From: Lentilitoribacter sp.
GTDB lineage: Bacteria > Pseudomonadota > Alphaproteobacteria > Rhizobiales > Rhizobiaceae
Direction: 5' to 3'
Length of the DNA: 64,000 nucleotides
Assembly: GCA_039986595.1 (NCBI GenBank)
Contig: JBDWQJ010000004.1
Location: forward strand, 621,385-685,384
Part shown: piece by piece, positions 33,259-36,255 of the stretch
How positions within the stretch are numbered: position 1 is the stretch's first letter
Layout of the letters: each line of letters begins with the position of its first letter
Notes under the pieces: model-generated
What the model was told of the DNA's origin: nothing
The model's input: only the letters and a program-made list of their open reading frames with translations
Databases searched by the model: none
Made by a program: the position numbers and the translations under genes

Positions 33259-33395
33259 TGAACGCTCCCCGCGAGGTCTAAACCTTATCGAATCATTTTG
33301 GAATGAGCATAACTTAACCTAGAAAATAAAAAAACGACACTTCCATCTGATTGATTAAAAGCGCCGTTTTAATATGAATTGAGAATGATCGGTAT

Positions 33396-34421
33396 TTATG
33401 ATTTTGCTTTAATCAAACCACGATTTACCAATAGCTCAGCGATTTGAACCGTATTTAATGCAGCGCCTTTGCGTAAGTTGTCGGATACAACCCAAATGTT
33501 TAAGCCATTTTCAACAGTTGCATCTTCGCGGATACGAGAGATGTAGGTCGCATCTTCACCCGCGCATTCATATGGGGTGACATAGCCACCATCTTCGTGT
33601 TTATCGACAACTAGACAACCTGGCGCTTCGCGCAGAATATCGCGCGCTTCATCGGCTGTAATTTCGTTTTCAAACTCGATGTTGATTGATTCAGCATGCC
33701 CAATGAACACAGGGACACGAACCGCTGTGCAAGTCACTTTGATTTTTGGATCTAGCATTTTCTTAGTTTCTGCCAGAACTTTCCATTCTTCTTTGGTGTA
33801 TCCATCTTCCATAAAGACATCGATATGTGGAATGGCGTTGAATGCGATGCGTTTTGTAAACACGTTGTTTTCAATCGGATCTGCAACGAATACCGCGCGA
33901 CTTTGGTTAAACAACTCATCCATACCGTCTTTACCGGCGCCTGATACAGACTGGTAAGTCGAAACAACAATACGTTTGATGTTTGCTTTATCGTGAAGCG
34001 GTTTTAGTGCGACAACCAATTGAGCTGTTGAGCAGTTTGGGTTGGCAATGATGTTCTTTTTGGTAAATCCATCAATCGCTTCAGGGTTTACTTCAGGAAC
34101 GATCAAAGGAACTTCAGCGTCATAACGCCAGGCGGATGAATTATCGATAACGACACAACCTTGCGCGCCGATTTTTGGTGACATCTTTTTAGATACCGAA
34201 CCACCAGCTGACATGAGGCAAATGTCAGTTGTAGAAAAGTCGTGGGCTTCAAGATTTTTAACAACAAGCGTCTTATCTCCATAAGATACTTCTCTGCCAA
34301 CAGACCGCGAAGACGCGAGTGGAATGATTTCAGATGCGGGAAAGCCACGCTCTTCGAGAATATTGAGCATTTCGCGCCCAACATTGCCAGTAGCACCGGC
34401 GATTGCAATTTTAAAACTCAT
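33396..34421 (-). CDS. asd: Aspartate-semialdehyde dehydrogenase
   Basis: GATGNVG, DNSSAWR, NPNCSTAQL, TYQSVSGAG, DNLRKGAA; start ATG 34421. Confidence 0.97.
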   Translation of the reverse strand: MSFKIAIAGATGNVGREMLNILEERGFPASEIIPLASSRSVGREVSYGDKTLVVKNLEAHDFSTTDICLMSAGGSVSKKMSPKIGAQGCVVIDNSSAWRYDAEVPLIVPEVNPEAIDGFTKKNIIANPNCSTAQLVVALKPLHDKANIKRIVVSTYQSVSGAGKDGMDELFNQSRAVFVADPIENNVFTKRIAFNAIPHIDVFMEDGYTKEEWKVLAETKKMLDPKIKVTCTAVRVPVFIGHAESINIEFENEITADEARDILREAPGCLVVDKHEDGGYVTPYECAGEDATYISRIREDATVENGLNIWVVSDNLRKGAALNTVQIAELLVNRGLIKAKS

Positions 34422-34430
34422 TTTGAATGT

Positions 34431-34509
34431 CCTGTCTCTCTCCGCATTCTTGACCACTTACAACGTGGCCTCATCCCCGACTACCGGGGAGAGTGCGGCA
34501 GACGAGAGG
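34431..34509 (-). promoter_or_regulatory. Structured asd leader (three-way junction covering the RBS), candidate attenuator
   Basis: Stems TCCCCG/CGGGGA (34474-79/34485-90), CCAC/GTGG (34454-57/34465-68), CCGCA/TGCGG (34442-46/34494-98), plus an outer CCT-CTC-TCT pairing with AGAGAG..AGG that includes the SD-like AGG(A). Confidence 0.65.
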
Positions 34510-34511
34510 TG

Positions 34512-34604
34512 TTACGTTGTTTTTGTCGTCTTGATTGCCGTTTTGGCGATGGAATTTGAAAAAGAGAATTGCGCTGCAGACAAGCTGATGCTTGCTACAT
34601 TCAT
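34512..34604 (-). CDS. Putative asd leader peptide, 30 aa (MNVASISLSAAQFSFSNSIAKTAIKTTKTT)
   Basis: Hand translation ATG 34604 to TAA 34512; all 5 Thr and 3 Lys codons fall in the last 10 codons; too short for the ORF track. Confidence 0.7.
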   Translation of the reverse strand: MNVASISLSAAQFSFSNSIAKTAIKTTKTT

Positions 34605-34657
34605 CAAATTTAAATTTTGCAATTCAATTGAAGTCATTACAATTCTTTTTCTTACCT

Positions 34658-34680
34658 ATCGGGGCGGTTAATGCCCCGAT
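34658..34680. terminator. Hairpin downstream of leuB
   Basis: ATCGGGGC-N7-GCCCCGAT; the T tail is on the + strand, so termination of minus-strand leuB is uncertain. Confidence 0.5.
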
Positions 34681-34722
34681 TTTTAATAAGAGTCAATCTA
34701 GCTTAATGCGTTAAATGAAGGA

Positions 34723-35832
34723 TTAACCCAATAGAGATGCATATTCAGCCAAGATTGCATCACCCATCTCACTTGTTGAGATCTGTGTAGCGCCTTCTGA
34801 CATAATATCGCCAGTACGTTTGCCAGTGTCCAATACGTTGGCAATAGCTTTTTCAACCATGTTTGCTTCATCAACCATGTTAAACGAATAACGAAGACAC
34901 ATTGCAAATGAAGAGATCATGGCAATTGGGTTTGCAATGCCCTGGCCTGCAATATCAGGTGCTGAACCATGAACTGGTTCATAAAGCGCTTTACGGCTTC
35001 CGGTTTTTGCATCCGGTGCGCCAAGCGATGCTGATGGCAACATGCCAAGTGAACCTGTGAGCATTGCAGCAATATCAGAGAGCATATCACCAAACAGGTT
35101 GTCACAGACTATTACATCAAACTGTTTTGGCCAGCGAACAAGCTGCATACCGCCAGCATCAGCTAACATGTGGCTTAATTCAACATCTGAATAATTTGCG
35201 CCATGAGTGGCTGTTACAACTTCATTCCATAGAACGCCGGATTTCATCACATTGCGTTTTTCCATGGAGCAAACTTTGTTTTGGCGGGTGCGTGCCATTT
35301 CAAATGCAACACCTGAAATACGCTCAATTTCATATGTGTCATAAACTTGCGTATCAATACCGCGTTTTTGGCCATTACCAAGATCGATGATCTCTTTTGG
35401 CTCACCGAAATAAACACCACCGGTTAATTCGCGAACGATCAGAATATCAAGACCTTCAACAACTTCTGGCTTTAGTGAAGATGAATTTGCCAGCGCTGGG
35501 TAACAGATCGCCGGGCGAAGATTGGCAAAAAGCTCCATATCTTTACGCAAACGTAACAATCCAGCTTCTGGACGTGCTTCATATGGAACATCATCCCATT
35601 TAGGTCCGCCAACAGCACCAAATAGCACAGCATCAGCTGCCATGGCTTTATCCATGTCAGCATCCGAAATAGATTCTCCATGAGCATCATAAGCTGAGCC
35701 GCCAACAAGCCCTTCATCTGTTTCAAAGCCCGTATTTTGTTTGTCATTCATAAATGTGATGAACTTACGAACTTCGTTCATGGCTTCAGGGCCAATGCCG
35801 TCACCTGGAAGAAGGAATAATTTACGTGTCAT
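34723..35832 (-). CDS. leuB: 3-isopropylmalate dehydrogenase
   Basis: [36 protein letters not shown] motifs. Confidence 0.97.
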
Positions 35833-35868
35833 GGAAAATACCTATTCTATTTTGGTTGATTAAGTTGA

Positions 35869-36255
35869 TTATGAGCTTGTCTGGCGTAAGGCTGTGACCT
35901 CTATTTCAACTTTCATCTCGGGTTTAATAAGGCCGGCCACAATCATGGTCGCTGCGGGTTGAATGCCTTTGAAGAAATCTCCCAGGATTGGGAAAACGAT
36001 GTCGGCATATTCGGCCTTGGTGATGATGTAATTTGCTTTGATGATGTCAGAGCGTGCAAAGCCTGCATCTTTAATGGCTTGATCAATGGTTGCGAGGCAA
36101 TTTAACGTCTGGTCAGAAATCGCCTCCGGCATAACCATGGTTTTATAGTCATAGCCGGTTGTGCCAGAAACAAAGCAAAAATCACCCTGAACAACAGCGC
36201 GCGAATAACCCGCTGTTTTTTCAAAATCTGATCCAGTTGAGATTAGATTTCGCAT
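35869..36255 (-). CDS. RidA/YjgF family protein
   Basis: GYSRAV, VSGTTG, PAATM, EIEVTA motifs. Confidence 0.88.
   Translation of the reverse strand: MRNLISTGSDFEKTAGYSRAVVQGDFCFVSGTTGYDYKTMVMPEAISDQTLNCLATIDQAIKDAGFARSDIIKANYIITKAEYADIVFPILGDFFKGIQPAATMIVAGLIKPEMKVEIEVTALRQTSS

Follow-up and report, generated by a model that had tools for sequence, protein, structure and literature searches.

Known leader-peptide systems and the asd locus

Aspartate-semialdehyde dehydrogenase (Asd) acts at the branch point from which lysine, diaminopimelate, threonine, methionine, and isoleucine are made, and to our knowledge next to nothing has been described about its regulation in alphaproteobacteria. The closest described element is SEP5, a small open reading frame (sORF) in the 5' untranslated region of asd in Sinorhizobium meliloti 2011, whose translation was demonstrated by ribosome profiling (Ribo-seq) and Western blotting (Hadjeras et al. 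2023, PMC10117765). SEP5 has six Thr and three Lys codons clustered at its 3' end and was described as "possibly a leader peptide"; it was called conserved only in Sinorhizobium, with neither an RNA structure nor a mechanism described (PMC10117765). In the literature searched, we found no mention of such a leader beyond S. meliloti SEP5 (PMC10117765). Here, we analyzed a 64,000-nucleotide (nt) stretch of contig JBDWQJ010000004.1 of Lentilitoribacter sp. (hereafter, the window), in which asd is preceded on the minus strand by a homologous leader ORF in the same position and by a set of mutually exclusive RNA helices. The Sinorhizobium loci L015 and L017 to L019 align with this element. The window's version differs from SEP5 in its last codon (Thr, not Val), its single purine tract, and an extended helix between two segments named r2 and r5 below. 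In addition, the leader was found here in 88 of 92 asd loci across many genera, together with a predicted multi-helix switch.

The amino acid biosynthetic leaders thrL (RF00506), trpL, and hisL show a similar layout. They have a short ORF with tandem codons for end products (Thr/Ile in thrL, Lys/Thr/Ile in the window), a stop codon adjoining segment 2, and mutually exclusive helices that begin within the regulatory codons. In contrast to them, the window's leader has no terminator hairpin followed by a U-run, would regulate asd alone, and comprises at least five segments, including a three-way junction whose last structure abuts the ribosome-binding site (RBS). It also lacks an Rfam match: a cmscan search of 33300-35900 (E <= 10) returned no minus-strand hit, including to Thr_leader and, upstream of asd, to the asd RNA motif of Lactobacillales, which we take to be Rfam RF01732.

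Leaders without a terminator are also known. In the cat-86/cmlA and ermC leaders, a paused ribosome masks or exposes the strand that base-pairs with the RBS region, and antibiotics are sensed via the nascent peptide; the "LEU element" of Actinobacteria is a predicted leader-peptide element that sequesters the Shine-Dalgarno (SD) sequence. The asd leader resembles the cat/erm type in that a ribosome on the leader ORF would govern strand pairing with the downstream RBS region, again without a terminator. However, its signal would be uncharged tRNA at Lys/Thr codons rather than an antibiotic acting via the nascent peptide, and its occluding helix, which leaves part of the SD exposed, closes a junction of 89 nt instead of a simple hairpin. 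Control of tnaC is Rho dependent, with a ligand-bound nascent peptide as the stall signal. The asd leader would share with tnaC a ribosome at the end of the leader ORF next to C-rich, unstructured RNA, and it likewise lacks an intrinsic terminator, but its putative stall signal is codon starvation, and no boxA or rut site is defined.

We regard the element as a probable case of leader-peptide attenuation that lacks a terminator, and not as a new principle; the family it belongs to is barely described. A Lys/Thr leader noted once, in S. meliloti, is now seen order-wide, and it carries a conserved multi-helix RNA that has no Rfam family and, in at least the window's genus, no terminator. It offers a concrete case in which amino-acid-sensing attenuation may act on translation or through Rho, and it would give the annotation of rhizobia, Brucella/Ochrobactrum, Mesorhizobium, and marine relatives a new cis-regulatory family to draw on. 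Our preferred reading, which we hold tentatively, is translational attenuation of the cat/erm type: the element may act as a ribosome-mediated leader-peptide attenuator, without an intrinsic terminator, through which asd expression follows the charging of tRNA-Lys and tRNA-Thr. A first-pass annotation made from the letters of the window had proposed a ribosome-dependent Lys/Thr leader attenuator of asd, and this proposal is supported by the leader codons, by the conservation in 88 of 92 loci, and by the competing helices.

A conserved Lys/Thr leader ORF precedes asd

The leader ORF (34512..34637, minus strand) has 41 codons and encodes MTSIELQNLNLMNVASISLSAAQFSFSNSIAKTAIKTTKTT*. Its start is most likely the ATG at 34637 and not an internal Met, because the congener G005 has no internal Met. 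The peptide matched no family in an NCBIfam-type protein family search. Its C terminus reads AIC-K-T-A-I-K-T-T-K-T-T-UAA, with the UAA stop at 34514-12, so that Lys and Thr take up 8 of the final 11 codons, in addition to one Ile. The regulatory codons AAA ACG GCA AUC AAG ACG ACA AAA ACA ACG (KTAIKTTKTT) lie at 34515..34544 on the minus strand, within the segment called r1 here. A spacer of 89 nt separates the leader stop from asd (33396..34421, minus strand; AUG at 34421-19), which was identified by the NCBIfam NF011456 and TIGR01296 equivalogs (E = 3e-155). The G+C content of the window is 43.5%. A genome-wide scan for sORFs with Lys/Thr-rich tails returned the asd leader and one other candidate only.

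Conservation was examined at two levels. The genus set comprised eight genomes, namely, the window's own and those of seven other species of the same genus that carry the region. For the family set, the Asd protein was used as a query and 80 further loci were fetched with their organism names; the set comprised 92 asd loci, 91 of which belong to Hyphomicrobiales. A leader ORF with a Lys/Thr-rich tail of the pattern ...KTxAKTTTKTV* precedes asd in 88 of the 92, where it ends 75 to 165 nt before the gene (typical tail, ...SKTTAKTTTKTV*). The genera include Sinorhizobium, Rhizobium, Agrobacterium, Mesorhizobium, Brucella/Ochrobactrum, Phyllobacterium, Roseibium, Stappia, Aureimonas, and Kaistia. 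The Roseibium tail reads ...TTKTTKTTA*, and some genera have leaders of only 10 to 12 codons, e.g., MTTIKTKTTI*. The final sense codon is Val in most relatives and Thr in the window.

Within the genus, synonymous sites from AAG (34532) to the leader stop showed no variation in seven of the eight members, and the RNA was invariant from this codon through the end of the hairpin P2 described below. Departures were limited to a single base of the final Thr codon in G004, the CC of GCCG (34498-97), and two bases on the loop side of P2. Divergence is seen in the N-terminal half of the leader and in asd, where identity falls to 76 to 83% in the most distant congeners. An N-terminal leader motif, (E/N)(L/F)Q(N/I)L(N/E), is kept in the genus. 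As a separate observation, the invariant synonymous sites in the last six Lys/Thr codons (34515-34532) include 34515-34525, which lie outside any supported helix; this stretch could reflect codon or tRNA-isoacceptor choice or an unrecognized pairing.

Competing RNA helices between the leader and asd

Four further segments follow r1 in the minus-strand RNA: r2, the pyrimidine tract after the stop; r3, the CUCUCC tract; r4, the 3' arm of P2; and r5, the purine tract before the asd RBS. Segment r2 (34494..34509, CCUCUCGUCUGCCGCA) is the left arm of helix A, CC-UCUC-(G)-UCU-(G)-CCGCA (34509-34494), and begins 2 nt past the leader stop. It pairs with r5 (34431..34446, UGCGGAGAGAGACAGG), the right arm UGCGG-AGA-GAGA-(CA)-GG (34446-34431), which contains the family-wide motif GCGGAGAG(R)GACAGG. 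The AGGA SD of asd (34430..34433) lies 8 nt before the AUG, and its two G residues close the base of helix A. Two hairpins stand inside the junction. Segment r3 is followed by P2 (UCCCCG GUAGU CGGGGA; together, 34474..34493), whose stem UCCCCG/CGGGGA is at 34490-85/34479-74, and the CUCUCCCCGG motif at r3 is kept across the family and is complementary to GGAGAG. P3 (GGCCAC GUUGUAA GUGGUC, 34452..34470) has its stem at 34470-65/34457-52. All of the pairings that the first-pass annotation had listed for this structure, as well as AGGA 8 nt before the AUG, are present in the minus-strand sequence.

Helix A with P2 and P3 is the minimum free energy (MFE) fold by RNAfold for 34410-34512 (103 nt), with an energy of -36.5 kcal/mol and a z score of -2.66, and 1 of 200 shuffled sequences folded as well. 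It is also the MFE fold for 34410-34560 (151 nt; z score, -2.0). Mean ensemble pair probabilities were 0.83 for the outer helix of A, 0.95 for P2, and 0.94 for P3. The structure is kept paired in all eight genus genomes, in which 94.7% of its pairs were retained with three double changes. Two of these are compensatory changes in P3 of G004, and one is a 2-nt register slip of helix A in G005. P2 is conserved throughout the genus, apart from the two loop-side bases. These results indicate that helix A is real, beyond chance, and is the ground state of the RNA. No terminator-like site was detected on the minus strand at 34300-34900, including between leader and asd, and the bases after P3 are AAGAAUG rather than a U-run. 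This agrees with the earlier view that intrinsic termination is unlikely here.

In helix B, CGGC (34540-37) and AGACGA (34531-26) pair with UCGUCUGCCG (34505-34496). Both 5' arms fall within the regulatory codon run and the 3' arm is part of r2, so that A and B are mutually exclusive; the stretch 34496-34505 is used by both, as had been predicted for a single pyrimidine strand. Helix B was 97 to 100% paired in the eight genus genomes, with one G-C to A-U compensation in G004. Complementarity of the B type recurs elsewhere in the family with other sequences (GGCCAA/UUGGCC, CACCG/CGGUG). Pairing counts in the family were made on a spliced alignment (A4), with column shuffles (500) and slid pairings as controls. 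In A4, 75.4% of the cells of helix B were paired, compared with 71.0% after shuffling (0/500 as high) and 16 to 46% when the arms were slid. Against shuffled partners, helix B reached z scores of -3.4 in the genus and -2.0 in the Rhizobium type, exceeding what composition would give. Helix B is therefore real and more than chance by these measures.

The coordinates, conservation, compensation, and recurrence of helix B thus bear out the first description, but its standing in naked RNA at equilibrium does not. Its mean ensemble pair probability was 0.014, the r1:r2 duplex energy was -13.3 kcal/mol, and forcing the helix cost about 4.6 kcal/mol of ensemble free energy. Because it makes up about 1% of the modeled equilibrium ensemble, it could act only kinetically.

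A further helix, C, had been proposed between the last Thr codons (ACAACGU, 34520-14) and ACGUUGU (34460..34466, minus strand), which lies inside P3. The bases match as listed, but the helix is rejected as a functional pairing and is considered a chance match. Its duplex energy was -8.7 kcal/mol, forcing it cost about 5.2 kcal/mol, and its ensemble pair probability was 0.000. In G004, six of the seven pairs are lost without compensation, and the terminal pair is present in only two of the eight genus genomes. A perfect complement of at least 7 nt between the leader tail and the spacer arose in 65 of 2,000 shuffles.

Long-range pairings across the family

Beyond the leader tail, the family shares a pyrimidine tract that starts 0 to 3 nt past the stop (UUCCCUUGGCC or CGUCUCUGGCC; CACCUCUCGUCUGCC in the window), the CUCUCCCCGG tract followed by the G+C hairpin P2 and then a variable hairpin P3, and the motif GCGGAGAG(R)GACAGGAG, with GGAGAG 21 to 27 nt before the AUG in most loci. 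The sequence of P3 is unrelated in other genera, yet some hairpin is always there. RNAalifold was also run on a full-length MAFFT alignment of 48 sequences, but the failure of P3 to align made the result uninformative, and anchored and spliced alignments took its place.

When complementary column runs were sought without bias in 47 representatives, r3:r5 (CUCUCC:GGAGAG) came out as the long-range helix with the highest conservation, at 91% canonical. It is compensated by lineage, with GGGGCG/CGCCCC in Aureimonas, CGGGGAG/CUCCCCG in Roseibium, GGAGAGCA/UGCUCUCC in L085, and CCGGGGAG/CUUCCCGG in Stappia. In alignment A4, r3:r5 together with r2:r4 was 77.4% paired, compared with 72.2% after shuffling (0/500), with 42 double-change cells against 24. 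When cognate duplexes were compared with swapped ones, r2:r4 showed an advantage of -3.4 kcal/mol (42/47), and the advantages of B (-1.4 kcal/mol) and A (-1.0 kcal/mol) were within control noise. In the window, duplex energies were -16.3 kcal/mol for r2:r5 (helix A), -16.5 kcal/mol for r3:r4 (P2), -12.8 kcal/mol for r3:r5, and -13.7 kcal/mol for r2:r4. The r2:r4 pairing is weak in the genus (-11.9 kcal/mol versus -18.9 kcal/mol for P2). Helix A was not borne out as a register conserved in the family, and the pairs that are conserved, r3:r5 and r2:r4, had been absent from the first-pass annotation. The family thus shows a chain of alternative pairings, namely, r1:r2, r2:r4 or r2:r5, r3:r4, and r3:r5, in which the window's genus has extended r2:r5 into the 14-bp helix A.

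Lineage-specific features were also seen around P3. In L061, L062, and L070 (Brucella/Ochrobactrum) and in L087 and L092 (Mesorhizobium, Aminobacter), the G+C stem of P3 is followed by UUUUU or UUUUCUCC. From its sequence, P3 of these loci could be an intrinsic terminator, and the family may switch between transcriptional and translational readout by lineage. The P3 loop of the Brucella and Mesorhizobium types conserves GGCC, which is complementary to the leader GGCCAA and the post-stop UUGGCC. P3 as a regulated terminator in these two types, with candidate antiterminators sought by eye, gave no consistent pairing and was dropped. In L054 and L045 (Aquamicrobium, Mesorhizobium microcysteis), the GCGGAGAG purine tract is separated from the RBS by an extra hairpin of 25 to 60 nt, after which comes a short anti-SD (GCUCC or CUUCC), 4 nt ahead of the AAGGAG SD. 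The insert suggests an additional link in the chain of alternative helices.

Effect of the helices on the asd ribosome-binding site

The first-pass annotation had proposed that the choice between the helices sequesters or releases the asd SD. A and B do compete, and the modeled cost of opening the RBS changes by 3 to 4 kcal/mol, but the SD itself only frays. The opening cost from 4 nt before the SD to 12 nt past the AUG was 6.0 kcal/mol in the naked RNA and 3.6 kcal/mol with helix B forced. With a ribosome masking the RNA, it was 4.1 kcal/mol when the A site was on the last Thr codon and 3.2 kcal/mol when it was on the stop codon. The unpaired probability of GGAGAG rose from 0.00 with A forced to 0.51 with B forced. 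Since A buries mainly GGAGAG while the SD only frays, the sequestration and release of the SD is an effect of 3 to 4 kcal/mol and not all-or-none. In these models, helix A occludes the RBS moderately, and covering r2 or pairing it elsewhere relieves the occlusion.

Folding with the ribosome footprint masked codon by codon was also carried out over the family, and the direction of the shift differed among lineages. In the short-leader relatives the effect was large, with SD accessibility in L053 rising from 0.25 to 0.70 under the ribosome mask. In the Rhizobium type, the closing helix of the junction covers the SD itself, and masking r1 raised SD accessibility from 0.32 to 0.40; occlusion of the RBS is thus a recurrent output of the family. 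A translational output is preferred here mainly because of the shift in L053 and the coverage of the SD in the Rhizobium type. Two other pairings near the RBS were rejected because they are not conserved: a possible second sequestor, formed by GAAUG and CAUUC as a hairpin spanning the SD (not kept in G003 or G007), and pairing of leader codons 12 to 14 (UGAAUGU) with the spacer between SD and AUG (not kept in the genus).

Proposed mechanism and alternative explanations

From the anatomy, conservation, and energetics of the element, we infer the regulation itself, its sign, and translation initiation as its output. In the proposed mechanism, r2, which lies two nt past the stop, would close the three-way junction with the purine tract GCGGAGAGAGACAGG (r5), which runs into the asd SD, and this ground state would make the asd RBS about 3 to 4 kcal/mol harder to open. 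Segment r2 could be taken from r5 by pairing with the Lys/Thr codons in helix B, or, alternatively, a ribosome dwelling on the stop codon or the last Thr codons could cover it, with a footprint that would extend to the base of A. When Lys or Thr is scarce, the ribosome would crawl over the terminal Lys/Thr codons and dwell longer on the last ones; the dwelling ribosome would hold the base of A open, and 30S subunits could start on asd. Under a good supply of Lys and Thr, the ribosome would leave fast and A would reclose. Direct unmasking of this kind has the right sign and fits the window's genus, with Thr at positions -1 and -2, as well as the short leaders. The opposite sign, in which a stall on the Lys/Thr codons frees the left arm so that A forms, would repress asd on starvation and is physiologically implausible.

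Several results weigh against this translational reading. The AGGA SD is only half buried by A, with an unpaired probability of 0.48 with A forced and 0.59 with B forced. A ribosome on the upstream Lys/Thr codons gives an opening cost of 6.9 to 7.5 kcal/mol, i.e., a slightly more closed RBS and the wrong sign. Only the last one or two codons bring the footprint onto helix A; the upstream Lys/Thr codons are equally conserved, and a stall at them leaves r2 free. The last sense codon is Val in most relatives, and direct unmasking is therefore not a general mechanism. In masked folding of the 88 leaders, shifts in SD accessibility were small and opposite in sign between lineage types. Helix B occupies only about 1% of the modeled equilibrium ensemble, and the family-wide pairs r3:r5 and r2:r4 play no part in direct unmasking. 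The A register of the window was 66.3% paired in the family alignment, compared with 65.3% after shuffling (53/500). In addition, no RNA reads of the source organism were found in three raw-read runs.

Two readings built on alternating helices draw on these family-wide pairs, and we regard both as rather unlikely. One is a classical multisegment attenuator with his/trp logic, in which B would be the "1:2" hairpin and a stall on the Lys/Thr codons would free r2 and switch asd on. The ON state would be r2:r5 (helix A, as an anti-sequestor) in the genus and r2:r4 in most relatives, and the OFF state would be B plus a junction closed by the anti-SD-like CUCUCC of r3 on GGAGAG and the SD. The regulatory codons lie inside r1 and the layout matches that of classical attenuators; the stop codon lies 0 to 3 nt before r2, and a terminating ribosome would thus mask r2. 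This chain gives the physiological sign for stalls at every Lys/Thr codon. It also makes use of r3:r5, the most conserved long-range helix with its lineage compensations (91% canonical), and of r2:r4, which has the strongest cognate advantage (-3.4 kcal/mol, 42/47). The r3 closing helix of the Rhizobium type lies over the true SD, whose accessibility rises on masking of r1 (0.32 to 0.40), and the extra hairpin with a local anti-SD in L054 and L045 has a parity, read by eye, in which r2:r5 is the ON state. However, the window model is opposite, with an RBS cost of 6 to 7.5 kcal/mol with A and 3.6 kcal/mol with B forced, and none of the alternative structures found in the window hides the AGGA SD better than A does. 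The r2:r4 pairing is weak in the genus against P2, and r2:r4 with r3:r5 would form a pseudoknot, which is beyond scoring by the folding tools used. The other reading, also doubtful, is an uncatalogued, order-wide five-segment RNA family. Its anti-SD-like CUCUCC would toggle between P2 and a conserved GGAGAG "decoy" 21 to 27 nt ahead of the start codon. Its post-stop tract would alternate among three partners, namely, the Lys/Thr codons, the decoy, and the 3' arm of P2, possibly with the r2:r4 and r3:r5 pseudoknot. The position of the ribosome would set which purine tract is exposed, and the output would be masking of the SD by the decoy or occlusion of the RBS, not termination.

Rho-dependent attenuation appears slightly less probable again. 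The A/C-rich, G-poor leader tail with r2 and r3 would form a Rho loading site by the leader stop, as in tnaC; a ribosome on the Lys/Thr codons would cover the site while the junction hides the rest, giving read-through into asd, and once the ribosome terminates and leaves, Rho would load and stop transcription early in asd. No intrinsic terminator was detected on the minus strand, and in the 66 nt of 34550-34485, C makes up 38% and G makes up 15% of the bases, and there are 13 YC dinucleotides. The sign would be right for a stall at any Lys/Thr codon in every lineage, occlusion of the SD, which is weak here, would not be needed, and the pyrimidine tracts are the most conserved parts. This is evidence from composition, however, and Lys/Thr codons are inherently C/A-rich; the covarying helices and the fixed 21- to 27-nt spacing of the purine tract to the RBS are left unexplained, and r2 and r3 are base-paired in every predicted state. 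Far less probable is that the long-range helices are by-products of composition and that the leader is nonregulatory or acts via mRNA stability or as a Lys/Thr-sensing arrest peptide. The r2:r5 duplex was no better than with shuffled r5 in most lineages, where it is composition driven (mean z score, -0.27; genus, -1.6), several alternative registers are available to (CU)n/(GA)n tracts, conservation of the A register does not extend to the family, and the C-terminal peptide KTxAKTTTKTV is kept at the amino acid level. On the other hand, the synonymous sites of the leader tail and the block from r2 to P2 are invariant while the rest of the leader and asd diverge, and B, r3:r5, and r2:r4 exceed column shuffles. 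In addition, the Asd pathway ends in exactly the amino acids that the leader encodes, an argument in favor of sensing through codons.

Upstream region and additional observations

The neighboring gene, leuB (34723-35832, minus strand), was identified by an NCBIfam equivalog. Upstream of the leader, a -35-like box, TTGACT (34691..34696, minus strand), lies within the conserved motif ATTGACTCT and may serve as a promoter element. In every lineage inspected, the motif (A/C)TTGACTCT (34691-34699 in the window; 920-930 in L015) precedes the asd leader. Two runs of a Sinorhizobium relative gave RNA contigs that start 4 to 8 nt 5' of the leader ATG and reach into asd. They begin at L015 965-969, before the GAGGA SD and the ATG (974) of the leader and about 40 nt downstream of the TTGACT box. 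These runs are stored as contigs only, without a depth profile, and the contig starts give a probable 5' end. Such contigs would be expected if the conserved box held a promoter and if leader and asd were co-transcribed, and they weakly suggest both. One low-depth contig, from a run guessed to be RNA, spans 34298-34633 and thus the leader and the start of asd.

The second sORF with a Lys/Thr-rich tail found in the genome-wide scan is on the minus strand of contig C7, with its stop at offset 132825 of the reverse-complemented contig, the tail LRKSKRRHISFSTWRIRTTTKTTNCTIKDT, and a TTG start; this candidate is probably spurious. An inverted repeat, ATCGGGGC-N7-GCCCCGAT (34658..34680, both strands), is situated between the leader ATG and the -35-like box; it is kept in the genus and absent from other genera. 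Its 8-bp stem is perfect and is terminator-like only on the plus strand, where T5 comes next. This repeat could serve as an operator, or it could terminate antisense or convergent transcription.

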